Virus record (IMG/VR): IMGVR_UViG_3300025679_000005
DNA: 64,000 nucleotides
From: a virus
Taxonomy: Duplodnaviria; Caudoviricetes
Direction: 5' to 3' (one strand)
This document shows positions 2,877-63,781 of the stretch, one piece after another. The stretch's first letter is position 1. Every line of letters begins with the position of its first letter. Position numbers and translations under genes: made by a program. A model generated the notes under the pieces. It searched no databases, was not told the DNA's origin, and saw only the letters and a list, made by a program, of their open reading frames with translations.

Positions 2877-3230
2877 TTACACCACGAGGTCGTCATCCCT
2901 CAAGCGCTCAAGACGACCCTTTATAATCGGTCTAGGGGCCGGAGCCTCTTCTTCATACAGACGGAACATAGGGTCTGGTGGTAAGTCGTCCTTCAAAAAC
3001 ACTGCAAAGTTCAGAAGGAACGTAATCACCGAGATCATGCCCGCCCAAAAATCGGGGGCTATATGAAGAAGAGTCCTGTCCAAAAATATAGTTAGGATCA
3101 CAGCGAAGGCCAGCCAGGCCAAGCAAGCGATCTGTTGCTTCAGCTTGTTCGTGACCCACAGGGAAACCCCAATTGAGACTGCGAGCCCTACAGAGATCAC
3201 TATCCAGACAGTGTGAGTAATCCCAGGCAC
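2877..3230 (-). CDS. Small three-TM membrane protein
   Basis: Hydrophobic segments; start reassigned to GTG 3230, 9 nt after a TGGTGTA element; ends RLERLRDDDLVV. Confidence 0.7.
   Translation of the reverse strand: MPGITHTVWIVISVGLAVSIGVSLWVTNKLKQQIACLAWLAFAVILTIFLDRTLLHIAPDFWAGMISVITFLLNFAVFLKDDLPPDPMFRLYEEEAPAPRPIIKGRLERLRDDDLVV
2878..2884 (-). promoter_or_regulatory. YGGTGTA element
   Basis: 10 nt upstream of ATG 2867. Confidence 0.7.
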
Positions 3231-3239
3231 GCAAAGTAC

Positions 3240-3255
3240 TACACCATTCGGTGTA
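3240..3255. promoter_or_regulatory. Back-to-back YGGTGTA pair
   Basis: TACACC-attc-GGTGTA; 9 nt to GTG 3230 (-), 10 nt to ATG 3266 (+). Confidence 0.75.
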
Positions 3256-3265
3256 AAAGGAAACG

Positions 3266-3577
3266 ATGCCGCCTCGAAACCCATTGCGTATACCAACGAA
3301 GATACAGACATTTGGAGAAGCTTTGCGCTGGGCCAGGCATGAGCGGGGCCTGACTCAGAAGGAGGTCGCTGAAAAGGCGGGGATGATCGCTACCTTCTAC
3401 TGCGCCGTCGAGTGTGGTAAACGCCAGACCGACCAATTGAAGACCCTTGCCAGAGTTCTGGGCGTTCGTATAGCCGATCTCGAAGAGCGAGCTGGGGTCA
3501 CCAAAGATCTCATCAAGTGGCTCAAGACGAAACCGGCCGTGGTCAAAGCATTGTGGCGCACTAGGAGGCAAGGCTGA
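3266..3577 (+). CDS. XRE-family helix-turn-helix regulator
   Basis: FGEALRWARHERGLTQKEVAEKAGM...YCAVECGKR. Confidence 0.85.
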   Translation: MPPRNPLRIPTKIQTFGEALRWARHERGLTQKEVAEKAGMIATFYCAVECGKRQTDQLKTLARVLGVRIADLEERAGVTKDLIKWLKTKPAVVKALWRTRRQG

Positions 3578-3978
3578 TGTCGGCATTATCCGGAAAGGCG
3601 ATGCTGGAAAAGCTCCTGAAGGTCGGAACGCTGACGGCCAAGGACAGAGAGACCTTCGAGGGCATGTGGGACGCTGTTCATCGTTACGGGGGGCTATCTA
3701 AAAAGCAAGTGGCTTGGGTCGAGGACGCATTTTACAAGCAGAAGTTTGAAGAGCCTGGACACACTCCGCAAAAGCGCTCGAAGAAGATCGGGTTCGTCAT
3801 TGACCCTAAGGTCACAACCGTCAAGCGGGCCATCAACATCGACCACTTTCAGCTTACCTTCAAGGAATATCCCAAGGGAACTCCCGTTTACAAGGTAGCG
3901 GAGAAATTCTTCAGGGCTGGGGGAGAGATCTTTGAGATACGCCCATCCAATGCTCCCCCAGCATCCTCCAAAGCCTAG
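3577..3978 (+). CDS. Hypothetical protein
   Basis: 133-aa ORF coupled (TGATG) to the XRE gene. Confidence 0.7.
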   Translation: MSALSGKAMLEKLLKVGTLTAKDRETFEGMWDAVHRYGGLSKKQVAWVEDAFYKQKFEEPGHTPQKRSKKIGFVIDPKVTTVKRAINIDHFQLTFKEYPKGTPVYKVAEKFFRAGGEIFEIRPSNAPPASSKA

Positions 3979-4687
3979 GAGCGGTGTGGTGGGCGATGTA
4001 CACGTGGTCTGGCCGGTCATCGCCTGAGTACTCTAGGCGGTAGAGGTTGCCAACGTTCTCCCAGTGCGCGAGGCTGTCCTTCGTCCAGATCTTGGTCTGA
4101 GCAGGCATGATGATAGTTCCGTTGGCGTCCCTTATGGCCTGCACGGTGACCTTAACTCCATCCGCTGGGATTACGGGGTTAAGGAGGTACTCTGGAAGCT
4201 GCTTGTACAGCATGCCTTCACCCGACGCCTCCCTGAAGATGTAACTGTTGGTCTCCTTTGCGGATATGTAGGGCGGCTTGATCTGGGTGTGAGCCATCAC
4301 CATCCAGGCGTCTCCTGAGGCCGCCCGCTTGGCGAACTGAACCCAAGGATCTAGTTCTTTAGTGTGGAGCCCGTCCTCCAGGATGTAGGCATCAACCCTT
4401 GATTCCTCCTGAAGTAGAATCTGGTTGGCTAGCTGCCAACCACCACTGAGAGTCACTAGGCCCCTCCGGCGGATTTCGACATCTTTGAATTTAGGGGCCA
4501 GCTCCTGAAGAGCTGCTCGGAAGGCATCTCCTGAGGAGGCCCATTGGCGTCCTTTGCGGAAAAAGTTGCCATCAGACCCCGGGACTACCAGGACAATCGG
4601 CTCTTCCATGAAAAATTGCTTCGCCCAGGTCGCACAAGGCGCCTGAGAGGAGCTGGCGTAAGCCGTGATGATGACATCTCTTTTCAT
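3911..4687 (-). CDS. Hypothetical protein
   Basis: About 258-aa ORF from MKRDVIIT; no motif recognised with confidence. Confidence 0.65.
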   Translation of the reverse strand: MKRDVIITAYASSSQAPCATWAKQFFMEEPIVLVVPGSDGNFFRKGRQWASSGDAFRAALQELAPKFKDVEIRRRGLVTLSGGWQLANQILLQEESRVDAYILEDGLHTKELDPWVQFAKRAASGDAWMVMAHTQIKPPYISAKETNSYIFREASGEGMLYKQLPEYLLNPVIPADGVKVTVQAIRDANGTIIMPAQTKIWTKDSLAHWENVGNLYRLEYSGDDRPDHVYIAHHTAPRLWRMLGEHWMGVSQRSLPQP

Positions 4688-4746
4688 GGAACTACCCAAG
4701 GTGTCCCTATGCCTAATCTACTAAATGAAACCCTATTTCGAACCAG

Positions 4747-6084
4747 ATGACCGAACATTGGGCTGAAGATCTCCAGGCAACGCAGAACGCTCCCGACAAG
4801 CCGGCTCTAACCGATGAGTACAAGGCTGTCGACAAGAACCTGTGGGACATAGTGATGCAGGTTGCCAAGGGGGAACGCCACGACTTTACAAGAGGCGGGC
4901 CAAACGGGGATCGAACCATCAACGCTCCAAATGAAGGTCAGGGGTTCCGTAAGTGGCCCAGTCAGAAGGCAGTGGCATGGGCCATAAAGCAGTACAAGGG
5001 GTTCGGTGGGCAGTGGAAGGGTGACGACGAGAAGAATGCTTCGGAAGACAATGAGTCCTTCGTACAAGCTGTAGCTCTGAGGTATGCGAGCGCAGATGTG
5101 TCACACACTGAGGCAATGCGCCACTACCAACGCAGCGTCCTCGACTTCATGCGGACGGGGTCGTTGATCACAACTGCAACAGGCACAGACGATCACTACT
5201 GGATGCTAGACCTCAGAGACCAAGCCCTGGTCAATCAGGTCCACGCAGCTGAAGGCAGTCACGTCTGGGACATCACTGCCAAGGGTGTTCGTGTGTTCGT
5301 CGCCGGTCTTGAACAGGACCTCGTGCACAAGATGGAACACCTGATCAACACCGAGCCCTACGATGGCAATGAAGCCAAGAAGATCGGTGAGTGGTTTGAA
5401 GCCAACTTCCGTTTCAAGTCTCCGAAGACTCCCAAAGGCCAGAAGGAACTCAAGACAAATTGTGAGCATCTCCATTGGGCTCTAGCGTACGGCAGCACGA
5501 TGTACGCGGGCAGACCGGACGCTTACAAGAGCAATGTCGAGAACCATTGGACATATGTCAAGCTCCACATTGGAGACCTAGTCAAGTACTTCTCTGATGA
5601 GGGCGGGAGGGTAGTCCCCAACGAGCTGAAGATTGGTGCCAATACCTATCTCAACAAGGCAGGACTCGACGAGAAGACGTTGGAGAAATACGCCCATCGA
5701 CTCAACACCGTGATTGAATCCCTTCGAGGATGGCGAGCCAAAGCCCTCAAGGGTGGTGTAAAAGTTATGCTTGTCAGCCCCAGAGACTTGGCGACTGGTG
5801 GCAAGTACAAGACTTCAGAGGACACCTTGATGGTTCGAGCTACGCCGGTCATTTTGAAGCGGGACGCGGGAACGTACGCCAGCTTTGATTATATCGTAGT
5901 CCACGAGCTAGGCCATCGATACGAACATAAGAATTCAGTGCCACAAGACTTCGATAAACCAGAATGGTGGACCTCGAAATACAGCTCCAAGGAGGGCGAA
6001 TCCTTTGCTGAGCTTTTCGCTATTGGTGCCTATAATTTGTCCGGACCTTGGGATCAGCTATTTTGGACCGTTTCGAAAAGATAA
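4747..6084 (+). CDS. Multidomain protein with C-terminal zincin (HExxH) metallopeptidase-like domain; 3' end probably cut by tnpB insertion
   Basis: VVHELGHRYEH...SKYS...ESFAELF motif; N-terminal KWPS..AVAWAIKQYKGFGGQWK module; last 8 codons run into the tnpB upstream region. Confidence 0.7.
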   Translation: MTEHWAEDLQATQNAPDKPALTDEYKAVDKNLWDIVMQVAKGERHDFTRGGPNGDRTINAPNEGQGFRKWPSQKAVAWAIKQYKGFGGQWKGDDEKNASEDNESFVQAVALRYASADVSHTEAMRHYQRSVLDFMRTGSLITTATGTDDHYWMLDLRDQALVNQVHAAEGSHVWDITAKGVRVFVAGLEQDLVHKMEHLINTEPYDGNEAKKIGEWFEANFRFKSPKTPKGQKELKTNCEHLHWALAYGSTMYAGRPDAYKSNVENHWTYVKLHIGDLVKYFSDEGGRVVPNELKIGANTYLNKAGLDEKTLEKYAHRLNTVIESLRGWRAKALKGGVKVMLVSPRDLATGGKYKTSEDTLMVRATPVILKRDAGTYASFDYIVVHELGHRYEHKNSVPQDFDKPEWWTSKYSSKEGESFAELFAIGAYNLSGPWDQLFWTVSKR

Positions 6085-6088
6085 TGGC

Positions 6089-7144
6089 ATGATCCGCTCT
6101 TACCGCTATCCACTGCACCCGCTGAAGGACCAGGAAGTGATCCTGGTCTCCTGGATTGAGAGCTGCCGCCAGCTTTTCAATGGGGCATTGGAAGAGCGGA
6201 AGAGCCACTACTGGAAGTTCAATCGTGGGCTAACTCATTATGAGCAACAGAAGTCGCTGACTATTCTTAGATCTCAGGATTTGGAGTGGAAAGCGATTCC
6301 GGTCATGATTCTTAGATCTGCCCTTAAGCGCTTGGATCATGCCTACAATATGTTTTTCAGGCGAGTGAAGTCTGGAGAAGCCCCAGGCTTTCCACGCTTC
6401 CGGGGTCGTCATCGGTACGACTCTTTCTCGCTGGCGGCATACTTCAAAGTGAGTGAGAAAACCAAAGGGCATTCAGCTACAGTCTCAATCCCGAAGCTTG
6501 GTCCGGTCAAATTCAATCAGTACCGTCCTCACAAGGGTGTGATCAAAGACATCATCGTCAAGCGAGAGGCTGACAGATGGTTTGTGATCTTCCAGTGCGA
6601 TTTGGGAGTAGCCCCTGAGGTCGTGATCGACCCCACGAAGTCCGTCGGCATTGACCTAGGACTCACCCACTTCGGTACCCTTGATGACGGAACAACGATC
6701 GAGAACCCTCGATACTTCCGAGCTGGCCAAGACCTCCTTGCCAAGCGCCAACGCGCCCTGCAACGCAAGCGCCGTGGCAGCCGCTCTCGTCAACGAGCCA
6801 AGATCTTGGTTCAGCGGGCTCACACCCACATCAAGAATCAACGCCTAGATCATGCCAGAAAGCTGGCTAAGTCACTCTTTGAATCGAATGACATTGTCTG
6901 CTACGAGGACCTCTCGATTGCGACAATGATCGAGGGCTCCTACCTAGCGAAATCAATCTCGGACGCTTCCTGGTCAATCACCATTCACTGCCTAAAATGC
7001 AAAGCGGAAGAAGCTGGCAAACTCGCAGTGGCTGTAGACCCAAGAGGGACCACACAGAGGTGTAGTGGGTGCGGAACCGTCGTCCCAAAGGGACTCCGGG
7101 ACCGCGTTCATGACTGCCCAGAGTGTGGCCTCGTCATGGGCTAA
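6089..7144 (+). mobile_element. tnpB: Solo IS200/IS605-family TnpB, truncated before RuvC-III
   Basis: MIRSYRYPLHP, GIDLG (RuvC-I), CYEDL (RuvC-II), DPRGTTQRCSGCG...HDCPECG, then stop at GLVMG*, lacking the DRDxNA motif present in the 55985 paralogue. Confidence 0.9.
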
Positions 7145-7184
7145 ACCCTATTGGGCACTACGTAGCAAAGGTAATGGCGTAAAT

Positions 7185-7867: not shown

Positions 7868-7894
7868 CTAATCCTTCGATAAATTCGGCCTTAT

Positions 7895-10030: not shown

Positions 10031-10075
10031 TAAGACCATACACCGTACGAATCCACTTAACAACCGGCATAGGCG

Positions 10076-13679: not shown

Positions 13680-13759
13680 GCGTCATTTCCTTAGGGTTGT
13701 CGATTCCCCAAGGCTTTACACCGGATCCCTCAGATTCAGGTCAGCGAGACTTAAAATTG

Positions 13760-14032
13760 TTATACTCGTCCGGATAACACCATACTGGAAATGAAAGACT
13801 TGGCTATATCCGGGCACTTAGCGATGATCGCCGGCACTGTAAAAAGATGCTTGCCGTCATCCTCGACGCCCTTATACCGCGGGGCTATCACAAAGGCATC
13901 AGGTAGCCCTTGACTCATGGCCGATCGGACAATACTAGCTGAGGCATGCGCCTCCTCTTCGGACGGGCCTACCACCTCTACGTATGCGGTCAACATATTG
14001 TGGCGGTACGAGACTGCTCGGATTACTTTCAT
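13760..14032 (-). CDS. Hypothetical protein
   Basis: 90-aa ORF. Confidence 0.55.
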   Translation of the reverse strand: MKVIRAVSYRHNMLTAYVEVVGPSEEEAHASASIVRSAMSQGLPDAFVIAPRYKGVEDDGKHLFTVPAIIAKCPDIAKSFISSMVLSGRV

Positions 14033-14062
14033 GCCAGGTAGAACGGATCCCGACAGTGAAAG

Positions 14063-14243
14063 TTAACCCGTCCTAGGCTTACGATGAAGACGCTTCCACA
14101 GACGGTGTCGTTGCTCGTTCAAGTCGTTCACAGCGTTGCGGGCCGCCTCTTGCTCGTCTTTTCGAATATTTGAACTGAGGAGCCTAGCCAACTTCGATCA
14201 TTTCTTTATTCAATTCTGCTTTAGTTTCGCGTACTTTGGACAT
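14063..14243 (-). pseudogene. Small coiled-coil ORF split by a 1-nt frameshift
   Basis: MSKVRETKAELNKEMI + (extra G in ATC-G-AAG) + KLARLLSSNIRKDEQEAARNAVNDLNEQRHRLWKRLHRKPRTG*; span is 60 codons plus 1 nt. Confidence 0.45.
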
Positions 14244-14605: not shown

Positions 14606-14612
14606 CGGTGTA
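14606..14612 (+). promoter_or_regulatory. YGGTGTA element
   Basis: 10 nt upstream of ATG 14623. Confidence 0.7.
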
Positions 14613-14622: not shown

Positions 14623-15855
14623 ATGTCCATAGACTGGAAGAAGCTCCGGAAGAAAATTCTCACCTTTTCTACCGAAATACTCCCCAAAATACCTCAGCGG
14701 GGAGACAGCGCTCTAACTGTCTTCATCAAGTTCATGTCGATTGCGGATTCGCTAGACAAGAATTTGGCCAAAGATTCGGCGCTCTCCTCCTTCTTTTCGC
14801 AGGTGACTGCGGAAAACAAGGAGAATGCTCAGTTCGTCGACCTCTTCTATTCGACGGCCCTGAGGAACACCTTCAAAATCAAAAAGCTGTCGATTTCCGA
14901 GTACTGCGACATCGTGATCGCAGAAGACAGCGAAATAGGCACCCTCTACTTCATCGAGTATCGCTGGAGTGGAAAACCGGAGCCCAGCTCGGACTTCTGG
15001 TACAGCCCCGACTTCAAGTTTGAGAAGGCCCTGGAGCGTATGTGGGCCATCTACCAGGGTGGCATCGACATCACCTTGAGGATTGAACGGGAGCGCATAA
15101 AGACCGCCTATGAGGGTTTGGAGTTCACCACCGACCCTTTGCTGGGGGATGCCCAAAAACGCTTTGACAAGGCGCTGGCGCTTCATAAGAGCTACGTAGA
15201 CCGGGGGTTCCCACGGACCTATCTGTACATTGGCAAACAGGGAGGCGGCAAGTCCACTTTTGCTACCCGGCTGTCCCAAGCCTGTGGCAACCGAACGTTG
15301 CGTATTGACACCAAAGGGATGACGGTGGCGGGGGCTACAGACATCGGTTTCATCATCAGTGGAATGCGACCGACTTTCCTGATCCTGGATGACATCGACC
15401 GCGTCTCCGATACCTCGACGATTCCGATGCTGCTAGCGGTCATGGCTAAGCTCAAGGACAAGCACCGCTCGGTGACCTGCGTGCTCACTGCCAACAGCCT
15501 GGAGCCTTTTGATCCGGCGTTCCTTCGCCCGGGGCGTGTCGACAAGATCATCGAGTTTGAGGACCCAGGTCCTGACGAGCGCGAAAAGATACTCCGAGGC
15601 TATCTCAACGAATTCGGGGCCCAGCCAGGAGTGGATCTCAAGAAGCTCGCTAAGGCCACGAAGGGACTTACCCCAGCCTACCTCAGGGAGCTAGCCGTCC
15701 AGCTTCAATGCGAATCCGTGGCTGAGGTCTTGGCCACCATCAAACAGATGCACAGGCTATCCAAGAAAAACGAGGTTCCGCCGCCTCCAGGAGGCCCAGA
15801 ACCGGCCGCCCCTCCAGGGACACCTCCCGGGAATCTCACAAAAGCTGCGTCATGA
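14623..15855 (+). CDS. AAA+ ATPase (BCS1/FtsH-like single AAA module)
   Basis: Walker A GKQGGGKST, Walker B LILDDID, TAN...DPAFLRPGRVD (SRH). Confidence 0.9.
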   Translation: MSIDWKKLRKKILTFSTEILPKIPQRGDSALTVFIKFMSIADSLDKNLAKDSALSSFFSQVTAENKENAQFVDLFYSTALRNTFKIKKLSISEYCDIVIAEDSEIGTLYFIEYRWSGKPEPSSDFWYSPDFKFEKALERMWAIYQGGIDITLRIERERIKTAYEGLEFTTDPLLGDAQKRFDKALALHKSYVDRGFPRTYLYIGKQGGGKSTFATRLSQACGNRTLRIDTKGMTVAGATDIGFIISGMRPTFLILDDIDRVSDTSTIPMLLAVMAKLKDKHRSVTCVLTANSLEPFDPAFLRPGRVDKIIEFEDPGPDEREKILRGYLNEFGAQPGVDLKKLAKATKGLTPAYLRELAVQLQCESVAEVLATIKQMHRLSKKNEVPPPPGGPEPAAPPGTPPGNLTKAAS

Positions 15856-16288: not shown

Positions 16289-16305
16289 TACACCTCTCTG
16301 GTGTA
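16289..16305. promoter_or_regulatory. Back-to-back GGTGTA pair
   Basis: TACACC-tctct-GGTGTA; 9 nt to ATG 16279 (-), 10 nt to ATG 16316 (+). Confidence 0.75.
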
Positions 16306-16686: not shown

Positions 16687-16712
16687 TACACCGCGGCACG
16701 CCAGATGGTGTA
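16687..16712. promoter_or_regulatory. Divergent YGGTGTA pair
   Basis: 10 nt to ATG 16676 (-), 11 nt to ATG 16724 (+); 14-nt spacer. Confidence 0.7.
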
Positions 16713-18927: not shown

Positions 18928-18990
18928 ATCTGGTGTGTTTGATTAACATTCTAGCGATCCGTGTTTGGTGTATAGGAGAGTAGTGGATCG

Positions 18991-22536: not shown

Positions 22537-22579
22537 CCCGTCCCGAAAAAGGGTCCCGAAAAAGTTAGCCGTCGGGCTA
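22534..22579. repeat. Inverted repeat enclosing a tandem 11-mer between convergent stop codons
   Basis: TAGCCCG(22534-40)...CGGGCTA(22573-79) enclosing TCCCGAAAAAG x2 (22541-51, 22554-64). Confidence 0.7.
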
Positions 22580-24007
22580 AGCCTGACCCATTGCTGGGTC
22601 TTCGGCGTTTAAGGCTGTGCCAGCATTCCCTGGGGAATTAACTCTGGTAGTAAGCCTACGGCTAGAAGCTGCTAGCACGGTAGCCGACCTTCCTGAGGAA
22701 CTGACCCCGGCCCGAAGGTCTAGGTATCGCTCTCTCAGGATGGTTTTCACTTCGGACGGGGAGTCATCGAGAAGAATGAGGTTGTCCTCAGAACGTCTGA
22801 GCAAATTCTTCCCTCCTACCACATCCGCATGAGAAATCTTACCGCATCCGCGGCATTTGAATTTAGTGCCTGATCGATTACCTCTGTGAACGTAACCACA
22901 AGAAGGACATTCTTGAGAAGAGTAGGCCGGGTTGACAACAATGATCGGTGCCTTGGTCTTCAAGGAGTTGTGAAGAGCCCTGTAAGCGAACCGCTTTTGT
23001 CCACGGCATCCACTGAGATCTAGGTCCTCAATGACGAATGCGTGCCCTGGGTAATCCCGGACAAGTGAGTTGGCAACGAATCCAGTACTGGATTTGATCA
23101 ATCCGCTGAGGCGCTCTTCCAACCGATCCAGACGAGGGGAGTTGAGGCGAAGTCCTTGGCGCTGCCTATTTCCTCGAAGGGTTTTGACCTTGGCATAAAG
23201 GGTATCGAACTTGGGCTTCAGATCAGCTCCGTAAAGCTTGCCGGTCGACGTGGCAGCTATCACGTTGAGACCCACATCCACACCTACCCTTGGGGATGTC
23301 AGGTCAAGCTTAGGGTCCTCGATCAGCTTCCGCTCAAGGACTTCGACACGCCATCGCCCACGTCGATCCTTCCGGATCATACATCCATTGACGATTTCGG
23401 ACGGATCCTTGATGTGAGGGTTGGCTACGATTGGAACCCATAGGCGATGACTCTTCCGTAGATGGGAGATGCCTAGCCACCAAGTAGTCAAGTCCACTTC
23501 AGGAACCACGCGGATGTCACTTGTGTGGATTGACATCCGCATCCCCACTCGATTGGAGATCGTTGGGGTCCTGCCCACTAGGCTCTCGTCAAGAAGGAAC
23601 GACCAGTACTGATCAATGGCTTCTTGGGGAATGGTTTCGCTTGGGCGGTCGACTCCGTACTTGCCGACGGTGAAGAGGGCGATCTGGGTAGCTTCAGTGA
23701 TCTCGCCTTCTTTAGCCAAGTTCTTGATGTGACGTTTGAGCTTCCTGGTGTAAAGGCTAGTAGTCCAACCTGAAACGATTTCAGCGGCGTGCTGCTGACA
23801 AGCCATTACAATGTTGGTGGAAAGTACCTTTTCCTTGGGGAAGAACCGGAGAAGTTCTTTCCTCGAAACGCTCATCCTCATGGATGAGATCATGACCTCG
23901 ACGCAGGCCTGTAGGTACCGAAGGTACTCTACATGAAGGGCTTCGAGAGCACGGATCTTCCCCTCATTGACTTTAGGGTGGAAGTAGAGGGCCCGTGAGC
24001 GTTTCAC
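22577..24007 (-). mobile_element. tnpB: Solo TnpB/Cas12f-like RNA-guided nuclease (second, divergent clade)
   Basis: VGVDVGLN, VIEDLDL, VNPAYSSQECPSCG...FKCRGCG...HADVVGGKNL; all three RuvC acidic residues present; no tnpA; start taken at GTG 24007. Confidence 0.85.
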
Positions 24008-24034: not shown

Positions 24035-24080
24035 CGGTGTATAAGCCCACCATGACAGCGCTGCCTTCTTTTTCGGCAGC
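24035..24080 (+). promoter_or_regulatory. CGGTGTA element plus leader hairpin upstream of the ABC operon
   Basis: GGTGTA 24036-41; GCTGCC-ttctttttc-GGCAGC hairpin; AAGGA SD before 24092. Confidence 0.55.
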
Positions 24081-24091
24081 AAAAGGAACCA

Positions 24092-24817
24092 ATGTTCGAT
24101 AATCTCAAAGAGACTTTGGGACGGGCTGCAACCAAGATCGGTCTAGCAGACGAAGTCCCGTCCGACAATACAACCAAATCCGCAGCGACTCCGCAATATG
24201 CGAGCCCTGCTCCTGTCCCACAATCCTCGTTGCCTGCCCCATACGGCGGAGCAAATTTCCCCTCGGCCCCGGCTCCTTCGGCGGATGCTGAACGGGTCGC
24301 CAAGTATGACGCCTCTGTGAAGACCACTCTCTTGGAGGCTGTTCAGAAGGTCGATGTGAGACTGATCCCTGAGTTGCAGACGCTTCTGTCAACGCTGGAA
24401 TCAGCTATCCCCGTAGAGCCGCTACGTTTCCAAACTGCCTTGAAGATCTTCACGGCAAAAGGTACGCCGATTTCGGCAATCGTCAGCGAGTACGACCTGT
24501 ACGAGGGCGCCTTGCAGGAGAAGAGCCAGGTCTTTGGCAAGGAAGCCAGGGATCAGTACGATGCTCGTGTTGGGACCAAGATCAAGGCAGTCGCTGATTA
24601 CGACTCCCTGATCGCGGCCAAGCAAGCACAGATCGCAGCTCTTCAACAAGAGCTGGTGGACTTAGCCACCAAACGGGCCGCAGAGCAAGGCGGCATCTCC
24701 GAGGCCGACAGCAAGCTCAAGCTTCTCCAGGCACGGTTCACTCTCGCCTACAACGATACGCTAGCTAGCGTTCAAGCACAAAAAACCAAAGTCGTCGAAT
24801 ACGGAAAAGGACTCTGA
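24092..24817 (+). CDS. Coiled-coil protein, first gene of transporter-like operon
   Basis: P/A/S-rich N-terminus, long amphipathic heptad C-terminus; AAGGA SD. Confidence 0.75.
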   Translation: MFDNLKETLGRAATKIGLADEVPSDNTTKSAATPQYASPAPVPQSSLPAPYGGANFPSAPAPSADAERVAKYDASVKTTLLEAVQKVDVRLIPELQTLLSTLESAIPVEPLRFQTALKIFTAKGTPISAIVSEYDLYEGALQEKSQVFGKEARDQYDARVGTKIKAVADYDSLIAAKQAQIAALQQELVDLATKRAAEQGGISEADSKLKLLQARFTLAYNDTLASVQAQKTKVVEYGKGL

Positions 24818-27742: not shown

Positions 27743-27772
27743 AGCCCGGAGTTGGACAGCCGACTCCGGGCT
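27743..27772 (+). terminator. Strong hairpin between binding-protein and permease genes
   Basis: AGCCCGGAGTTGG-acag-CCGACTCCGGGCT followed by CCTCTTTT. Confidence 0.7.
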
Positions 27773-27865
27773 CCTCTTTTCCGTGGGGATCATTTGGCGT
27801 CCCCTCGACTACACGCCAACAACACCCGCTCAGGGGTTCCAATACTGTGACCTCCTAGGGACTAA

Positions 27866-28645: not shown

Positions 28646-28950
28646 TGAACCCTTACATGGCAATTGCTCTATTGATCTTCGTTGTGTTGGTAGCCTGGCC
28701 GACCAACATGACTCGAGGCGACTCGGTGGTTGGCTCCCTCTTTCTGGCCGTAATCTGGCCCACCCTCTTGATCGTATCAGGCTACCTTTTCATCAAGAAG
28801 TACGTGTTCAAGCGATCCGGACTCAGCGGATCTGAAGTCGGCTCTGAGCTTGAGATTCTAGGGGCTCTGGTAATGACCGGCGGATTACTGTCTCTGAGCT
28901 TAGTCTACCCGCACAACCCCGTCGTAGCTTTCCTAACGAGGCCCTTCTGA
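28645..28950 (+). CDS. Small membrane protein within ABC operon
   Basis: 101 aa, three hydrophobic segments, TGATG-coupled on both sides. Confidence 0.6.
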   Translation: MNPYMAIALLIFVVLVAWPTNMTRGDSVVGSLFLAVIWPTLLIVSGYLFIKKYVFKRSGLSGSEVGSELEILGALVMTGGLLSLSLVYPHNPVVAFLTRPF

Positions 28951-32834: not shown

Positions 32835-33176
32835 ATGTCTGAGCTTGAATTCTTGGAGACCCTGTATGAGATGAACGGTGAAGGCGAGTCTAAAATAGAC
32901 GCGACCCTTGACCACATCTTTCAGTGGACTAACACGCAGTTCAGCTCGGGCAAATTCGCCGTCGTTGATTCGATGTTGGCCATGATCGACCCGCAGTACT
33001 TCGGGGAAGACCTGATTGTTGGACTGATCCTTTCTACTTACCCTGGCCGGGACGAACTCCAGCAGTGGGAGGAGTTCGTCTCTCGTTGCAGGTACCAACT
33101 AGATGGCCTCCTAGGACCCGTGGTGGCAAGCGTGATTTTCAGCCAGCTGGACCTGAAGCTGTCGGGATCGGTGTAG
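32835..33176 (+). CDS. Hypothetical protein
   Basis: 113 aa, acidic and helical. Confidence 0.6.
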   Translation: MSELEFLETLYEMNGEGESKIDATLDHIFQWTNTQFSSGKFAVVDSMLAMIDPQYFGEDLIVGLILSTYPGRDELQQWEEFVSRCRYQLDGLLGPVVASVIFSQLDLKLSGSV

Positions 33177-37875: not shown

Positions 37876-37983
37876 GTAGGACTACTACACCAGGGTTGGA
37901 GCATAAGTTGACTAATAAATCAGCCCAAAATGCGATAGATCTTTGATACCTCTGCTCGACCGCCCATCGGAGATCAGGTATTT

Positions 37984-38515: not shown

Positions 38516-38537
38516 GCTGGTGTAAGAACAGCCACCA

Positions 38538-40289: not shown

Positions 40290-40318
40290 CGTGTTTACAC
40301 CGAGCTGGTGTAAACACG
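40290..40318. promoter_or_regulatory. Back-to-back YGGTGTA pair within a 12-bp inverted repeat
   Basis: CGTGTTTACACC-gagct-GGTGTAAACACG; 9 nt to ATG 40286 (-) and 9 nt to ATG 40322 (+). Confidence 0.8.
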
Positions 40319-40321: not shown

Positions 40322-40843
40322 ATGTCCCTAGGTGTGTACGCCGGCAGTTTCGATCCTTTCACGTTTGGTCACTTGAGCATCCTCAATGGAGCCCTCAAGG
40401 TATTCGATCGCGTCATCGTCGCCGTTGGCGTGAATTCCGCCAAGAAGGGCCTCTTCGAGAATGACGAACGTATGGCCATCATCGTGGAATATCTTAAGGA
40501 ATTCCAGTGTGCTGGCGCGACCGTGGACAGCTTCGAGGGTCTCCTGATCGATTATTGTGATCGGATGCGTACTCCTGGGGTCTACCCCACTATCATCCGC
40601 GGACTTCGAGCTGTATCCGACTTCGAGCAGGAGATGGCCATCGCCGACATCAATCACAAGATGGACCCGACCATCCAGACTATATTCATCCCCGCTGAGG
40701 CGCCCCACGTCTACGTGAGTTCAAGCACGGCCAAGGAGCTGGTCAAGCATGCTAAAGACTCCGATACTGCGGCCCGTTTGGAGCACTACGTTCTTCCCAG
40801 TGTCGCACTGAAGATGCACTCCAAGATCAGGCGTGGCCATTGA
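40322..40843 (+). CDS. coaD: Phosphopantetheine adenylyltransferase
   Basis: YAGSFDPFTFGH, RGLRAVSDFEQE, YVSSSTAKE. Confidence 0.92.
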   Translation: MSLGVYAGSFDPFTFGHLSILNGALKVFDRVIVAVGVNSAKKGLFENDERMAIIVEYLKEFQCAGATVDSFEGLLIDYCDRMRTPGVYPTIIRGLRAVSDFEQEMAIADINHKMDPTIQTIFIPAEAPHVYVSSSTAKELVKHAKDSDTAARLEHYVLPSVALKMHSKIRRGH

Positions 40844-41580
40844 AGTCCGTCATTCTAGCCCCACTGCATCGACCTGAGGACGCGGTTAATCTAGCGGCCA
40901 ACATCGAGCGCCAAAGTATTCGGGCGGATGTCATCGTCGTCGAGAATGGCCCAGGAATCGATTCCTATAAGGGGCGGGGCAAGGTCCTCAGGATCGACTC
41001 AAAAGGTGTAGGAGCGGCTAGGAACGCCTGCATTGAGGCAGCTCGTGAAGACGGTCAGAAATGCTTCTTCTTCTTCTTCTTCGATGCCGACGACTACTAT
41101 GGCCCTGATTACGTCAGAGGGTGCCTGAACTTCTTGATCCGTAATCCGGTGTCCGCCGCCGGGCGTTCCCAAGGCTGGACGATTCTTTCCGACGGCCTCT
41201 ACCGATTCGACCACGTCGAGACGATATTGCCCAGTGGGGGGACCCTCATGGGGGTCCTAGCCGACGCCTTGCCGTTCCCTGAGGATGTCGTGATTGGAGA
41301 GGATCACGCTTGGTGGCAGGCCATGATCGCCGCTGGCAAGTCTGTGGCCTTGACGGGTGACCAAAGGGATTACTGCTATATCCGACACTCCCACAACACC
41401 TACGTGATGGACGAAACCTTGTTTCGGCTAGGGCGAGGCCCCGTTCATTACTACGGAAAGTTGCCACCAGAGGCAATATCAGGTACTCTCGAAGCCATCG
41501 AGACTAGGCCACACCCCTCCAATGCCGAGGTCATGGCCGCCTTGAAGAGGGTGGGCTCCAGGCCTTCTTTGGTGTACTAG
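40840..41580 (+). CDS. GT2-family glycosyltransferase
   Basis: VIVVENG, GAARNACI, FFDADDYY, GEDHAW. Confidence 0.8.
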   Translation: MKSVILAPLHRPEDAVNLAANIERQSIRADVIVVENGPGIDSYKGRGKVLRIDSKGVGAARNACIEAAREDGQKCFFFFFFDADDYYGPDYVRGCLNFLIRNPVSAAGRSQGWTILSDGLYRFDHVETILPSGGTLMGVLADALPFPEDVVIGEDHAWWQAMIAAGKSVALTGDQRDYCYIRHSHNTYVMDETLFRLGRGPVHYYGKLPPEAISGTLEAIETRPHPSNAEVMAALKRVGSRPSLVY

Positions 41581-43661: not shown

Positions 43662-44265
43662 CCCCTGATCTACACCGGTCGAGGAACTCCCGTGCTTCGA
43701 GGAAATCCAACGCTTGTCCACGGAGATGCTCCACATCGCTGTCATTGCGGATGAGGTAGTCGGCGTGGGCAACCGCTCGTCCAGGGCTCTGTGAAGCCAG
43801 ACGAACCCGGGCATACTCCTCAGTGAAGCCGCTCCTGGCCATCAGGCGTTGAAGCTGAAGCTCTGGATCAATCTCCACGACCACCAGCGGGCGGAATTGG
43901 GCCCACTGCCCAGACTCGACAATCTGAGAGGCTTCATAACAGATGAGCCCATCCAATGCCAGGGACTTGTCCACGAAGCGTTGCTGGATGTGTTTCCACT
44001 GGATCTGCTCCAAGGTTCTCAGCAAGGGGTTCTTACCCTTGAACACGAATTCTCCCAGCTTTTTGCGATCGATGTGCCCGTCCCCGGTGAGGAAGTTGAC
44101 CCCGAAGATGTTGCTGATCTCGTAGTAGCAGGCCTCTCCAGGCTCCATGACCTCACGGGAAAGCTGGTCCGCATCAAGGACGTGGACGCCTTGCTCAGCG
44201 AAGAACTTGCCGACGGTGCTCTTGCCCGAGGCGATGCCGCCAGTCAGTCCGAATACGGTTCTCAT
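43645..44265 (-). CDS. coaE: Dephospho-CoA kinase
   Basis: FGLTGGIASGKSTV, DADQLSR, IDRKKLGEFVF, QLQRLMARSG, ADYLIRND. Confidence 0.9.
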   Translation of the reverse strand: MRTVFGLTGGIASGKSTVGKFFAEQGVHVLDADQLSREVMEPGEACYYEISNIFGVNFLTGDGHIDRKKLGEFVFKGKNPLLRTLEQIQWKHIQQRFVDKSLALDGLICYEASQIVESGQWAQFRPLVVVEIDPELQLQRLMARSGFTEEYARVRLASQSPGRAVAHADYLIRNDSDVEHLRGQALDFLEAREFLDRCRSGDAHIY

Positions 44266-44757: not shown

Positions 44758-44774
44758 TACACCGGTCCGGTGTA
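44758..44774. promoter_or_regulatory. Back-to-back YGGTGTA pair
   Basis: TACACC-ggtcc-GGTGTA; 10 nt to 44747 (-), 12 nt to 44787 (+). Confidence 0.75.
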
Positions 44775-47715: not shown

Positions 47716-47778
47716 CGTCTAAGTATACACCAGGCCCTAGGGCCGAACCATGAAATTCCTTTATTGAATCGCTAGGGT

Positions 47779-48264: not shown

Positions 48265-48282
48265 TTCGGTGTAAAAGGGAAG

Positions 48283-50557: not shown

Positions 50558-50573
50558 TACACCAGGCGGTGTA
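50558..50573. promoter_or_regulatory. Back-to-back YGGTGTA pair
   Basis: TACACC-aggc-GGTGTA; 10 nt to GTG 50547 (-), 9 nt to ATG 50583 (+). Confidence 0.75.
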
Positions 50574-53020: not shown

Positions 53021-53027
53021 CGGTGTA
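53021..53027 (+). promoter_or_regulatory. YGGTGTA element
   Basis: 10 nt upstream of ATG 53038. Confidence 0.7.
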
Positions 53028-54983: not shown

Positions 54984-55012
54984 ACCAGCCGGTTGGTGTA
55001 TAGTCTGGATAG

Positions 55013-55435
55013 GTGGCCGAGCTTTCACCCTATCAAATTCAGGACCTTCGGGACACACGAGACGACGTGGACCAGAGCGGCACGCTCATCTGTCCTGACT
55101 GTTTCGGGTCGGTTCGGCTCTCCGAGAGCAAATTCGGCAGGTTCTACCGTTGTAGGAGGGGCTACCGGGTCTGTCCGGGAGCGATTTCGGCTTTTGATGA
55201 TGGCTCCCCAAAGGGAGTGCCCGCGAACAAAGCCACCAGGACTCACCGTCGGATGGTCTTCTTTCTGATGGAACAACGGTCAGTTAACCTAGACTACATA
55301 GAGGCCATCGTCGGCCATGAGCTGGCTATGGGCATCGGCTCCTTGACCAAAGAAGAGTGTGAGCTAATCCTCAGGCGGCATGAAGAGTACGTCCCGAAGA
55401 CTTTTGGAGAACGCCTCGACGACCCTCTGGTGTAA
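55013..55435 (+). CDS. Zn-finger protein (DUF3268-like) ending TFGERLDDPLV
   Basis: CPDC...FYRC...VCPG...GSPKGVPANKATR. Confidence 0.7.
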   Translation: MAELSPYQIQDLRDTRDDVDQSGTLICPDCFGSVRLSESKFGRFYRCRRGYRVCPGAISAFDDGSPKGVPANKATRTHRRMVFFLMEQRSVNLDYIEAIVGHELAMGIGSLTKEECELILRRHEEYVPKTFGERLDDPLV

Positions 55436-55984: not shown

Positions 55985-57166
55985 ATGATCCGCTCTTACC
56001 GATACCCACTGCACCCCACGAAGAATCAGGAGGCGACTTTGACCTCCTGGCTCCTAGCATGCGGTAGTCTGTACAACGGAGCATTAGAAGAGAAGAAATC
56101 CTCGTGGGCAAAGCTCAAAAAAGGCGTTTCCTGTTACGAGCAGTATAGGTCTCTGACCATCATTCGTTCTCAGGACCCTGAATTCGGAGCGATACCCGCA
56201 ACTATCCTTCGATCTGCTCTCAAACGACTTGAACGATCCTTCGACGGATTCTTCCGTCGCGTGAAATCTGGAGAGGCCCCTGGTTATCCACGGTTTCGTA
56301 GTCAAAAGCGATATGACTCATTCTCATTGATGGGCTGTTTCTATTCTGGAGTCATTGTCGATAAAGCCAGAGGCTCCTCAGCTCAGGTCAAAATCCCCAA
56401 GCTTGGCCTCGTGAAGTTCAACCAGTACCGACCTCACAAGGGTGAGGTCAAAGACATCCTAGTCAAGCGAGAGGCTGATCGATGGTTCGTGATCTTCCAG
56501 TGCGACCTCGGAGCGGCACCCAAGGTCGCGGCCGACCTCACGAAGTCTGTCGGCATTGATCTAGGGCTTACCCACTTCGCAACCCTCGATTCCGGTGAGA
56601 CGATCGAGAACCCTAGGTTCTTCAAGGCCGGACAAGACCTATTGGCTAGGCGGCAGCGTGCTCTAGGGCGTAAGCGCCGGGGCAGTGCCTCTATGAGACG
56701 TGCTAAGATCCTAGTCCAGCGGGCTCACGCTCACATCAAGAACCAGCGCCTAGACCACGCTAGGAAGCTCGCCAAGAGTCTTTTCGATCGCTTCGACGTG
56801 GTCTGCTATGAGGATCTTTCGATCCAGGACATGATCTCCGGACCTCCCAGAGACGGAAAGCCTAAGCTCAATCTAGCCAAATCAATCTCAGACGCTTCCT
56901 GGTCAATTACAATCCACTGCCTAAAATGCAAAGCGGAAGAAGCTGGCAAGATCGCAGTGGGGGTTGATCCAAGAGGAACCACACAGAGGTGTAGTGGGTG
57001 CGGGGAGATCGTCCGTAAGGACCTTTCTATGCGCATTCATGATTGCCCCGCATGTGGTCTCATCATGGATCGTGACCAGAATGCAGGATGTAACATCAAA
57101 GCGCTCGGTTTGAGCGCGGTCTTGGGGATGAAGTCCCAGCCGAAGTTCATAGTCAGGGCAGCTTAA
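55985..57166 (+). mobile_element. tnpB: Solo IS200/IS605-family TnpB, intact
   Basis: GIDLG, CYEDL, CSGCG...CPACG, DRDQNAGCNI; 3' hairpins GCGCTC-ggttt-GAGCGC and CTTGGGGATGAAGTCCCAG consistent with an omegaRNA region. Confidence 0.92.
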
Positions 57167-57167: not shown

Positions 57168-57680
57168 ATGAGCCGTCAAGACTTTTTGGGTAAAACCCGG
57201 CAACGTCCTCTTGATGCCAAGATGATCCCCGAAAAACAGCACGAATGGGCCTATTGCGAACACTGCCAAGTCTGGATGGTTCGCTGTGGGGCCTGTCGTA
57301 ACAACACCTGCAATGGCGGGTACGGGACAACTGCCTCGGGATCGCCCTGTCCCAGTTGCCCATCAGCCTATGAGCTGATGAAGATCTTCTACGAGACGAA
57401 GCACACCCTGGACTTCAAGGAACTGGATGGCTTATCCAAGGAGGAGTACAGGGCGAAGCTTCGATCCATCACTCCGATCCCGACGCCGATTAAGCTCGCT
57501 GAGTTGGATGCCAAGATCGAAGCCTACGAGGCGGGTCACGGCCTGAATTCGGACACGATGCTGTCCAGGCTGACCAATGGGGATATCGAAGAGACCCCAG
57601 AAATCTGCGACTGGCTGATGGATCTCGACCTGCGAAAACGCCTGCTCGGTGTAACTACGGGGCATGCCCAATGCCCCTGA
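57168..57680 (+). CDS. Cys-rich hypothetical protein
   Basis: CEHC...CGACRNNTCNGG...CPSCPSAY. Confidence 0.65.
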   Translation: MSRQDFLGKTRQRPLDAKMIPEKQHEWAYCEHCQVWMVRCGACRNNTCNGGYGTTASGSPCPSCPSAYELMKIFYETKHTLDFKELDGLSKEEYRAKLRSITPIPTPIKLAELDAKIEAYEAGHGLNSDTMLSRLTNGDIEETPEICDWLMDLDLRKRLLGVTTGHAQCP

Positions 57681-59001: not shown

Positions 59002-59011
59002 GACCTAATTT

Positions 59012-59040
59012 CACCTAGGGGTTAAGTACGCCCCTAGGTG
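59012..59040. terminator. Perfect 10-bp-stem hairpin in intergenic region
   Basis: CACCTAGGGG-ttaagtacg-CCCCTAGGTG. Confidence 0.6.
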
Positions 59041-59059
59041 GCCGTTAGGGATAGTAACC

Positions 59060-61932: not shown

Positions 61933-61948
61933 AATCTAAGGAAACTAA

Positions 61949-62485
61949 ATGGCTACTCGAAAATCGGCTATCACTGCGGAGGTGTACTCGCTCGAACACA
62001 CCCCGGACATCAAGATGAATCGTGCGCAACGGATGGCGCAATTTTTGCTGCAAGCGGCCAAGGACCATCCCCAGATGTTCTTCAAAAAGGCGCATCTCCT
62101 ACGGATCGCGAACCTTGACCCGAGCCTCCCTCGTGGGGAAAAGCAGCTCAAGGAGTTCAATGGCATCAAGACGGCTGCCAAACTGATTCTCGAAAGGGAT
62201 CACAAATGCACCATCCACTCTGAGCGGGCGTCGGGTTATCGCGCCACGCATGGGGATGAGGACATGGCGAAGACCCAGCTCCGCATTCACAATGCCCGTT
62301 TGGTGGCACAGCACACGCGGACCACCAGGATAGCGACTGCAATCGAGCCTCGCAACATCCACAATGCGGCCATCCGAGAGGAAGTGGCGAACGCCAGGCG
62401 AGCCCTGACCAACATCGGAGGCCAGTTGGGCAGCTTGACTTTGCCCCAACTGAAGGCAAAGCTGCCGGAAGAGAATCGGACCTGA
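61949..62485 (+). CDS. Hypothetical (wHTH-like) protein
   Basis: FLLQAAKDHPQMFF...GYRAT; similar to the next ORF. Confidence 0.7.
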   Translation: MATRKSAITAEVYSLEHTPDIKMNRAQRMAQFLLQAAKDHPQMFFKKAHLLRIANLDPSLPRGEKQLKEFNGIKTAAKLILERDHKCTIHSERASGYRATHGDEDMAKTQLRIHNARLVAQHTRTTRIATAIEPRNIHNAAIREEVANARRALTNIGGQLGSLTLPQLKAKLPEENRT

Positions 62486-62763
62486 TGGCTGATCCCGTTT
62501 CAGATTGTGAAGCGGGAACGCCTCCCCACGTTCGTATCGCGTCCTTTCTAAGCCAGGCGGCCATTGTTTCGCCTGGCTCTTTCTTCAAAAGAGATGCCCT
62601 CATCAAGATGGCCTTTGGCTCTGAGCCAACGGAGGATGACTTCCGAGCGACTATCTGCAAGGCCTCTATTCTGATTGAAGAGGGGTCGGGGATCGCTGAA
62701 GACAAAAGGGGCCTCCGAGTCACAAAGACGCCCAAGTGGGTCCAACGTAAAAAGAAGGCCTGA
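62485..62763 (+). CDS. Short paralogue of preceding protein
   Basis: FLSQAAIVSPGSFF...GLRVT. Confidence 0.65.
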   Translation: MADPVSDCEAGTPPHVRIASFLSQAAIVSPGSFFKRDALIKMAFGSEPTEDDFRATICKASILIEEGSGIAEDKRGLRVTKTPKWVQRKKKA

Positions 62764-62766
62764 CCC

Positions 62767-63762
62767 TCAAAAGCACATATCGATCCCAGCAAGCCGTGCT
62801 TGCTCCAGAACGCCTTGGGCTTCCGTAGTCTCAAGGCGTTTTTGGATTTCAGCGGCTGACTCGGGATTGATTTCGATCCCCAGGTAGTCCCGCCTCAATC
62901 CCTGAGCCTCCATCAAGGTGGTTCCGGAGCCGGCGAAAGGATCCAGAACCAGGCAAGACTCGATGGGGCCTTCGGGGCATTTACAGGTTCGCTGCCAGCC
63001 CTTGGTCAAATACTCCGGAGGGGCGATTGAAGGCATCGAGTACCCCTTTGAAGATCCCGTCCCGACAGCAGCATAGCTACCGGGATGGCCTTCCCGTTTG
63101 GGGGATGGCGGCGACACTCGTTCGAGTATTCTCTCTAGAGGGGCCCCGCAGGCTTCGCAGGCGCCTTCCTGGGACGTTGATAGGCGGATGCACCTCCTGG
63201 GCAGTGCCGGAGGGAATACCGCCGGATGCGCCTCTCCGTAGCGTTCTGTTGGCAGGCGCCAGACACTCCTGAGGTTGGCACCTGACTCCTCGCGTACCGC
63301 TTCGGAGTCATAGTAGTACTTCCGGCCTTTGGTCAGAAGGAATAGCGGTTCGAAGGACCTGGTTGGCCGATCGTGGACGTTCTCTGGCATGCCAGAGCCC
63401 TTATCCCAGCAAATCTCTGATCGGAGGATGAACCCTATTTCTCGGAGTCTGCTTACGAACCTCGACGGCATCTGTAGCAGTTCCTTGTTGGCATAGGTGT
63501 CCCCCAGATTAAGCCAAAGGCTGCCATCACTCCTGAGTACTCGATGTACCTCGGAGAATATTTCCGTCAAATGATCGAGGTAGGCTTCGGGGGTGCTCTC
63601 TAGGCCCAGTTGAATCTGACTGCCGTCGCCCCAAGTAGCCGAAGGCTCTCCATAGTCCCGAAGTGCAAAATATGGGGGTGACGTAACCACACAATGGGCA
63701 TGTTCCGAGGGGACGAGTTTAAGCTGTTGGAGGGCAGACCCGATGAGGACCGTATTGCGCAT
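62767..63762 (-). CDS. DNA N4-cytosine/N6-adenine methyltransferase (beta class) with Cys-rich insert
   Basis: VTSPPYF, HPAVFP, VLDPFAGSGTT; CEACG...CKC insert. Confidence 0.9.
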   Translation of the reverse strand: MRNTVLIGSALQQLKLVPSEHAHCVVTSPPYFALRDYGEPSATWGDGSQIQLGLESTPEAYLDHLTEIFSEVHRVLRSDGSLWLNLGDTYANKELLQMPSRFVSRLREIGFILRSEICWDKGSGMPENVHDRPTRSFEPLFLLTKGRKYYYDSEAVREESGANLRSVWRLPTERYGEAHPAVFPPALPRRCIRLSTSQEGACEACGAPLERILERVSPPSPKREGHPGSYAAVGTGSSKGYSMPSIAPPEYLTKGWQRTCKCPEGPIESCLVLDPFAGSGTTLMEAQGLRRDYLGIEINPESAAEIQKRLETTEAQGVLEQARLAGIDMCF

Positions 63763-63774
63763 CTTCGATCACCT

Positions 63775-63781
63775 TACACCA
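63775..63781 (-). promoter_or_regulatory. YGGTGTA element
   Basis: 12 nt upstream of methyltransferase ATG 63762. Confidence 0.65.

Follow-up and report, generated by a model that had tools for sequence, protein, structure and literature searches.

What does the heptamer YGGTGTA (Y, C or T), which stands just ahead of start codon after start codon, do in a huge uncultivated phage? The question is raised by a 64,000-nucleotide (nt) stretch of a Caudoviricetes virus (IMG/VR record IMGVR_UViG_3300025679_000005), which is called the window here in its whole length and in whose numbering all positions are given unless stated otherwise. An earlier note on the window had taken the element for a compact phage-specific promoter for leaderless messenger RNAs (mRNAs), and literature searches returned no published description of the motif. 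Our analysis supports that proposal: YGGTGTA is very probably a promoter of the -10 type that needs no -35 element and gives leaderless or near-leaderless transcripts. The support comes from the scarcity of Shine-Dalgarno (SD) sequences at motif genes, from divergent gene junctions, from a -10 hexamer fused to the motif in a related phage, from copies ahead of genes for transfer RNA (tRNA) and transfer-messenger RNA (tmRNA), from the near absence of the motif in a long-operon block and from a second class of promoter that lies equally far from start codons; from these genomic patterns we infer the transcription start site, leaderless translation and the identity of the reader.

The window corresponds to positions 127,773-191,772 of the 464,302-bp ENA metagenome contig ERZ27294387 k141_731965, and the identical sequence is present in an 88.5-kb Joint Genome Institute (JGI) peat contig. 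To avoid circularity in the choice of start codons, we relied on the independent ENA/JGI gene calls, which cover ~100 kb of the contig, from -8.8 kb to +91.7 kb in window numbering.

Both strands of the window together hold 42 copies of YGGTGTA, compared with 8.34 ± 2.84 expected from dinucleotide shuffles, and 0 of 100 shuffles reached 42. Among the 56 copies of the shorter GGTGTA, offset 9 holds an ATG in 8 and offset 10 in 11 (0.83 expected per offset), which amounts to 19 of 56 copies at these two offsets against 1.7 expected, while all other offsets have 0-2. The distance histogram is far from flat, and the signal is one of position, as the earlier note had held; hexamers inside genes occur at ~33 per 100 kb, near chance. 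All 27 motif/start pairs listed in that note were reproduced with their gaps (8 nt in 1, 9 in 10, 10 in 11, 11 in 1, 12 in 3 and 13 in 1), which bears out its count of more than 25 starts with a box 8-13 nt upstream. C or T precedes GGTGTA in 26 of the 27, the exception being AGGTGTA at 16289-16295. The independent calls gave a similar picture, with GGTGTA ending 9-14 nt before the called start in 28 of 126 genes (gaps of 9 nt in 9, 10 in 11, 12 in 5, 13 in 2 and 14 in 1). Some of the listed starts are non-ATG codons (GTG at 3230, 10030, 50547 and 55013; TTG at 37875); the independent caller placed the start elsewhere at three genes, taking 10039 in place of 10030, 16760 in place of 16724 and 37836 in place of 37875, and did not call the small open reading frames (ORFs) at 16676 (50 amino acids, aa) and 48283 (61 aa). 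The sites in the window, with the gap in nt between box and start codon, are as follows.

2878..2884, minus strand: TGGTGTA, gap 10 to ATG 2867 of a 555-aa transglycosylase-domain protein; the box is the last codons GTG GTG TAA of gene 3230-2877
3240..3255, both strands: divergent pair TACACCA-NN-CGGTGTA, GTG 3230 (minus) gap 9 and ATG 3266 (plus) gap 10; starts 36 bp apart
10039..10045, minus strand: CGGTGTA, gap 8 to GTG 10030; the independent caller's ATG 10039 overlaps the box; divergent from gene 10076
14606..14612, plus strand: CGGTGTA, gap 10 to ATG 14623 of a 410-aa AAA ATPase
16289..16305, both strands: divergent pair TACACCT-NNN-TGGTGTA, ATG 16279 (minus) gap 9 and ATG 16316 (plus) gap 10; the minus copy is AGGTGTA
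16687..16712, both strands: divergent pair with a hexamer-to-hexamer spacer of 14 nt, ATG 16676 (minus) of a doubtful 50-aa ORF and ATG 16724 (plus) gap 11 (independent caller, 16760)
33169..33175, plus strand: CGGTGTA, gap 9 to ATG 33185; overlaps the TCG GTG TAG end of gene 32835-33176
37886..37892, minus strand: TGGTGTA, gap 10 to TTG 37875 of an intein-containing 1096-aa ORF; the independent ATG 37836 would mean a leader of ~40 nt
38518..38524, plus strand: TGGTGTA, gap 13 to ATG 38538 of a UDP-glucose/GDP-mannose dehydrogenase
40296..40312, both strands: divergent pair TACACCG-NNN-TGGTGTA, ATG 40286 (minus) and ATG 40322 (plus, cytidylyltransferase), gaps 9; starts 36 bp apart
41570..41576, plus strand: TGGTGTA, gap 9 to ATG 41586 of a glycosyltransferase; within the last codons of gene 40840-41580
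43671..43677, minus strand: CGGTGTA, gap 9 to ATG 43661; within the 3ʹ end of the upstream gene 44265-43645
44758..44774, both strands: divergent pair, ATG 44747 (minus) gap 10 and ATG 44787 (plus, Bax1-I family) gap 12
47726..47732, minus strand: TGGTGTA, gap 10 to ATG 47715; divergent from gene 47806
48267..48273, plus strand: CGGTGTA, gap 9 to ATG 48283 of the uncalled 61-aa ORF
50558..50573, both strands: divergent pair, GTG 50547 (minus) gap 10 and ATG 50583 (plus) gap 9; starts 36 bp apart
53021..53027, plus strand: CGGTGTA, gap 10 to ATG 53038 of an NT5C nucleotidase; divergent from gene 52954, which has an SD
54994..55000, plus strand: TGGTGTA, gap 12 to GTG 55013
55428..55434, plus strand: TGGTGTA, gap 10 to ATG 55445; the box is the CTG GTG TAA end of gene 55013-55435, whose protein tail reads ...ERLDDPLV-stop
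57647..57653, plus strand: CGGTGTA, gap 10 to ATG 57664 (445 aa); within the 3ʹ end of gene 57168-57680
63775..63781, minus strand: TGGTGTA, gap 12 to ATG 63762 of an N6/N4 DNA methyltransferase; divergent from gene 63850
13717..13723, minus strand: far CGGTGTA, 37 nt before ATG 13679 (SD TAAGGA); taken as this promoter followed by a ~27-nt leader
24035..24041, plus strand: far CGGTGTA, 10 nt before ATG 24052 of a 16-codon ORF and 50 nt before ATG 24092 (SD AAGGA)
18966..18972, plus strand: far TGGTGTA, 18 nt before ATG 18991; would leave a leader of ~8 nt

Does the box act on RNA, in translation, or on DNA, in transcription? An SD-like 4-mer is found in only 4 of the 28 motif genes compared with 38 of the 98 other genes (Fisher p = 0.02; background 10%), in line with the earlier remark that most of the close-spaced genes lack an SD. 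The SDs of the other phage genes are of the ordinary GGAG/AGGA type, which indicates that the host ribosome reads ordinary SDs and that the box replaces an SD rather than resembling one. The three boxes that the earlier note placed further upstream were all confirmed, and the intervening leaders before 13679 and 24092 hold an SD. The 16-codon ORF at 24052-24102 (MTALPSFSAAKGTNVR), which begins exactly 10 nt after a box and overlaps both a GCTGCC/GGCAGC hairpin and the SD and start of gene 24092, may be an upstream ORF that is leaderless and coupled to that gene.

A translational role would take the form of a non-canonical ribosome-binding site or translation enhancer in the 5ʹ untranslated region, in which GGUG pairs with the CACC of the 16S tail or is bound by a phage translation factor. 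Such a site would explain the fixed distance to the start and the missing SDs; GGTG belongs to the extended SD consensus, and 9 of the 28 sites follow immediately on a gene of the same strand, a place at which an internal ribosome-binding site would be expected. The sequence itself fits poorly. Pairing with the 16S tail does not go beyond 4 nt, since only GGTG could pair, and the conserved flanks Y and TA are bases that do not pair and that differ from the (A/G)GGTGAT of an SD there. GGTG ends 11-12 nt before the start, whereas that anti-SD register needs short spacing, and the GGAG/AGGA sites at the other genes also speak against it. Together with the divergent junctions and the related phages considered below, these points make a ribosome-binding role improbable.

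Turning to gene arrangement, 15 of the 28 motif genes start at a divergent junction compared with 23 of the 98 others (odds ratio 3.8, p = 0.007). At six junctions in the window two boxes stand back to back, with start codons 36-40 bp apart. When the window sites were aligned from -45 to +30, only the heptamer was conserved, besides a weak preference for A/T at the three positions following TA; the sequence logo revealed no second conserved element within 45 nt upstream of motif starts. Thus a -10 box stands here without a -35, as in late promoters of the T4 type, with no conserved position from -45 to -2 other than the box. As nothing else is conserved at the 36-40-bp junctions, the motif is the sole promoter candidate there, which is hard to reconcile with a site that serves the ribosome. 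Matches to the sigma70 consensus are depleted in the window (13 compared with 28.8 expected).

Further evidence comes from other phages. A megablast search of the GenBank phage collection with 10 kb of the window gave no match, an exact 47-mer had no match in IMG/VR, and a single-protein IMG/VR search with a 589-aa ORF found no relatives; no RNA run was listed as containing an 8-kb or a 1.5-kb stretch of the window. Relatives were found by scanning IMG/VR for the divergent box arrangement, which several contigs of 300-530 kb matched. Five IMG/VR phages (372-529 kb) each contain 42-76 occurrences of YGGTGTA-N9/10-ATG compared with 0-4 for the reversed control. The kinship is distant: 9 of 85 window proteins have tblastn matches in one of the five, G003 (complete, 437 kb), at 24-53% identity, and promoter positions at orthologues of this phage and G003 are not conserved, hence no phylogenetic footprint could be drawn.

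In G003 the motif extends to YGGTG-TAYRGT, and position 6 of the hexamer is T in 42 of 47 sites. The hexamer is therefore TAnnnT, and the modal gap of 10 nt puts the A of ATG exactly at +1 (hexamer at -12..-7). In another relative, G005, the T at -7 appears to be partly conserved, as judged by eye. The TA, at -12/-11 if the start codon is +1, is invariant in all 27 window sites and in all 47 G003 sites. At starts in G003 the hexamer is fused to GGTG in 29 of 38 cases and to AGTG in 3 of 38; because it precedes starts almost only in fused form, the composite is the unit. The -10 geometry suggested in the earlier note holds as far as the invariant TA and the spacing are concerned, since a 10-nt gap would put the A of ATG at +1; the T at -7 is not conserved in this phage (6 of 27 window sites), unlike in G003.

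This result also bears on another explanation, namely that the box is an operator half-site of a phage regulator lying beside an unrecognised promoter. GGTGTA is essentially invariant, with one-mismatch forms at the same distance at chance level (6 compared with 3.4 expected), as for a sequence-specific DNA-binding protein, and the palindromic TACACC-N4/5-GGTGTA at six sites would suit a dimer. Yet most sites are single and strand-specific relative to the gene (15 of 27 starts), the spacer within pairs varies from 4 to 14 nt, no promoter-like element accompanies the motif, and the motif in G003 is fused to a -10 hexamer that hardly occurs at starts without it. We give an operator with a separate promoter little chance; in practice it shades into a promoter reading, as a factor occupying -17..-11 would take part in recognising the promoter.

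The distribution along G003 points in the same direction. Its 81 sites (5 in the control) are nearly all outside the region 300-437 kb, which carries ~94 long genes and switches strand 2-3 times per 40 kb, compared with 18-34 times elsewhere. Site density thus tracks the number of transcription units and not the number of genes, and the near absence of the box from these ~94 genes counts against a ribosome-binding site.

Is the box also found where nothing is translated? As no tRNA genes and no Rfam families were found in the window, this test was carried out in the five relatives. Nine same-strand copies of YGGTGTA were located no more than 70 nt upstream of a tRNA or tmRNA gene, compared with 0.65-1.2 expected (P 3e-8 to 6e-6), at gaps of 13, 13, 15, 16, 18, 25, 33, 43 and 45 nt. 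The tmRNA gene has an upstream box in three of the five relatives, and in a fourth a one-mismatch copy stands at 17 nt. A start 10 nt past the box would leave a 5ʹ leader of 3-8 nt for removal by RNase P, and a ribosome-binding site has no role there. This result is the most telling one, and it argues against a ribosome-binding role. In the present contig, too, one box (window ~86,229) stands ahead of something other than a protein-coding start, namely a solitary CRISPR-type repeat. At 257557-257714 and 278193-303263, G003 has 53 tRNA genes on one strand, two adjacent CTA-anticodon tRNAs among them, amber suppressor-like and labelled Pyl by ARAGORN, and a tmRNA whose tag is ANDNAIADQAIAA.

Copies before coding and non-coding genes alike would also be explained by RNA processing, if a phage or host endoribonuclease cut ~10 nt after GGUGUA and so yielded leaderless mRNAs as well as tRNA and tmRNA precursors. 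The same idea accounts for boxes within the 3ʹ ends of upstream genes, some of which, as the earlier note had pointed out, are built from the terminal codons (GTG-GTG-TAA at 2878, CTG-GTG-TAA at 55428, TCG-GTG-TAG at 33169). But divergent pairs 36 bp apart need promoters, and no other is visible; a concentration at strand switches is characteristic of promoters; and the TAnnnT extension in G003 with its -10 geometry is a sigma signature at the DNA level. A parallel motif class with clearly promoter-like architecture, found at the same distance from starts, is a further difficulty, and we regard processing as very improbable indeed.

That parallel class, here called class A, has the form TTAAS-N16/17-CGTW. 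Promoters of extracytoplasmic function (ECF) sigma factors have a -35 box GGAAC or TTAAC, a spacer of 16-17 bp and a -10 box CGT. In the present contig class A motifs end 9-13 nt before the start codons at 14032 (minus), 59060 (plus), 71711 (plus, cas5d), 79926 (plus), 89988 (minus) and 90843 (minus), and one lies in the leader of a type I-C CRISPR region; the places beyond the window are ~65.7k, 71.7k, 79.9k, 90.0k and 90.8k (L005/L001). The two window sites are given below.

14042..14066, minus strand: class A TTAAC-N16-CGTT, ends 9 nt before ATG 14032
59022..59046, plus strand: class A TTAAG-N16-CGTT, ends 13 nt before ATG 59060

Among the relatives, class A occurs 48 times in G002 (1 in the control) and is absent from the other four. 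G002 is the sole relative with a strong ECF sigma match (95.5 bits), and class A heads the operon of that gene, as expected for an ECF sigma factor that would regulate itself. At one G002 junction class A and YGGTGTA face each other. Because class A, a recognised promoter architecture, stands at the same 'leaderless' distance, it counts in favor of reading YGGTGTA as a promoter. The two are distinct all the same: they share the distance from -10 to start (8-13 nt), and TGTA of the box differs from CGTA of class A by one base, whereas the -35 box of the AAC type 16-17 bp before CGT is present in class A and missing from YGGTGTA, and YGGTGTA is found in all five relatives but class A only in G002. 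A copy of YGGTGTA at 71664, considered as a promoter with an SD leader for cas5d, was dropped, as class A ends 9 nt before the same ATG.

How would such a promoter work? In the mechanism that we propose, YGGTGTA would be the single-box -10-type promoter core across this clade of huge phages, with its TA at -12/-11. The invariant YGGTG upstream of TA would stand in for the -35 as the specificity determinant and would presumably be read as duplex, while the DNA would melt downstream of TA. A bacterial-type RNA polymerase would initiate 10 ± 1 nt past the motif, at the first base (A or G) of the start codon, giving an mRNA that begins with AUG or GUG and would be translated leaderless without an SD; where the box lies farther from the gene, the leader would carry an ordinary SD. 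Back-to-back TACACC-N4/5-GGTGTA would make a bidirectional promoter with start codons only 36-40 bp apart.

Several observations weigh against this mechanism. The T at -7 is at background frequency in the window, which means that the box is not a canonical sigma70 -10 in this phage. TG abuts TA (GGTG-TA) and hence falls at -14/-13, while the classical extended -10 has it at -15/-14. The 7-nt box carries only ~13 bits, and the copies inside genes are not depleted; either the surrounding sequence contributes as well, or the phage tolerates spurious starts within genes. The 9 sites directly behind a same-strand gene would also be explained by a ribosome-binding site. Finally, the tRNA/tmRNA evidence comes from distant relatives and not from this genome, and opposite-strand copies near tRNAs are somewhat raised as well (5). 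Two other copies of GGTGTA, at 7059-7064 and 56988-56993, lie within a conserved stretch of ~40 nt common to the 3ʹ ends of the TnpB genes 6026-7144 and 55985-57166; they are probably part of the guide-RNA/right-end region of the TnpB element, not promoters.

Which factor reads the box? The earlier note had suggested looking for a phage sigma factor or RNA polymerase, and both were looked for in the five relatives. Weak sigma-like ORFs are present in all five, including a conserved protein of ~200-250 aa, which in G003 has an acidic N-terminus and a region-4-like sequence with no recognisable region 2. No gene for an RNA polymerase beta or beta' subunit or a T7-type polymerase was detected, although highly divergent subunits of the phiKZ type could escape the models used. 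The box is 50-100 times denser in the phages than in metagenome-assembled genomes (MAGs) of Polyangiaceae/Myxococcales, a candidate host lineage, and the pattern is not strongly enriched in genomes of that lineage. The UDP-glucose dehydrogenase of the window (38538-39839, plus strand) has its closest bacterial relatives in Polyangiaceae/Myxococcales MAGs (59-60% identity, compared with 48-54% for the remaining matches), a weak hint, from one gene, at a myxobacterial host lineage. A 19-mer of the type I-C repeat gave a single stray match, in Devosia, no relatives of Csd1 were found, and no 16S was present in the relatives labelled 'provirus'.

The reader could be the host's core RNA polymerase combined with a host sigma factor or with a phage factor specific to the clade; we lean towards the phage factor because the hexamer is invariant and rare in genomes of the candidate host lineage. 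It is conceivable, though we would not expect it, that the reader is a clade-specific phage protein unlike any ordinary sigma factor, which docks on the duplex at -17..-13 against the start of melting and so makes the host core polymerase independent of a -35, a new mode of promoter recognition. One candidate for such a protein is the conserved sigma-like ORF of ~200-250 aa. Along with it, if this were true, would go bidirectional promoter cassettes of 36 bp and a proteome made largely from leaderless messages, in phages of 370-530 kb.

How does the box compare with known systems? T4 late promoters have the consensus TATAAATA, which gp55/gp33 recognise together with the host core RNA polymerase. 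Like YGGTGTA, they consist of one highly conserved -10 box without a -35, are phage-specific and define a gene class; the consensus differs, and T4 late mRNAs have SD leaders. Only divergent sigma-like ORFs were seen in the relatives, and homologues of gp55/gp33 were not searched for. Leaderless start codons of Deinococcus deserti have a -10 motif directly ahead of them, with no conserved -35, and SDs are found where mRNAs have leaders (PMC4007540). In Deinococcus and mycobacteria, leaderless promoters share with the box a -10 just before the start, SDs only on leadered genes and the lack of a -35 (PMC4007540, PMC4633059). Theirs are host housekeeping promoters with a degenerate TAnnnT, whereas the phage box is an invariant YGGTGTA whose T at -7 is unconserved in this phage.

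Middle and late promoters in Thermus phage P23-45 are members of the extended -10 class and are unaffected when the sigma4/-35 contact is lost (review PMC7403470). They resemble the box in being -35-independent, in having their specificity in the -10 and the bases just upstream, and in using host RNA polymerase during phage development. They differ in that a TG-type extended -10 is read there by host sigmaA, while in the present phage TG abuts TA and GGTG is invariant. P23-45 transcripts are reportedly leaderless. The jumbo phages phiKZ and AR9 use multisubunit RNA polymerases of their own, which read short promoter motifs; no leaderless transcript was found in phiKZ, and 5ʹ untranslated regions in AR9 are 26-491 nt long (PMC8244752, PMC5312081). 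The likeness lies in very large phages with short class-specific promoter motifs of their own near the transcription start, and the difference in their having polymerases of their own and leadered mRNAs, whereas the relatives of this phage showed no gene for an RNA polymerase beta or beta' subunit or a T7-type polymerase. What sets the box apart from all of these is the sequence, the invariant hexamer, the register of TG and the 36-bp bidirectional cassettes; -10-only promoters and leaderless mRNAs are of a known kind.

A large part of the genes in this clade of uncultivated huge phages appears to be expressed through leaderless mRNAs that the host polymerase makes. For annotation, a validated box would fix true start codons, and gene callers mis-start several motif genes here. 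For regulation, it would delimit transcription units and separate YGGTGTA genes (in the window mostly accessory), ECF-type genes and blocks with neither. As the box can be encoded as ...CTG GTG TAA, protein tails of the form ...PLV-stop in this genome, such as the one encoded at 55409-55435 (the end of gene 55013-55435), may be partly shaped by an embedded promoter. In engineering, a 7-bp unidirectional or 36-bp bidirectional box would provide an expression part of unusual compactness and a means of tracing the reader.

The window has a guanine-cytosine content of 53-57%, and its genes are small, change strand frequently and serve chiefly accessory functions. The products include a transglycosylase-domain protein, an OmpA-domain protein, a UDP-glucose dehydrogenase, glycosyl- and cytidylyltransferases, a Bax1-I family protein and an Acb1/2ʹ-5ʹ ligase-like protein. 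Inteins (Hint plus LAGLIDADG) interrupt the 1096-aa ORF 34585-37875 (minus strand), whose host protein has no assigned function, and the ABC-type ATPase 28950-30806 (plus strand). The three TnpB genes lie at 6026-7144, 55985-57166 and 22577-24007 (minus strand).

CRISPR-type sequences were seen in three places. A solitary repeat of ~37 nt (27811-27851) follows a strong 13-bp hairpin (27743-27772) and ends 14 nt before the ATG of gene 27866. A second solitary copy lies at ~86,240-86,276 in window numbering (L005 ~15014-15050) and is followed by a short hairpin; a YGGTGTA box directly precedes it (L005 15003, window ~86,229), and no ORF is present there. Just past the end of the window is a very long type I-C CRISPR region (L001 2200-7810, window ~65.9k-71.5k) in which the repeats come in two variants and many of them are degenerate; next come a hairpin and then the cas5d-csd1-cas7-helicase genes.

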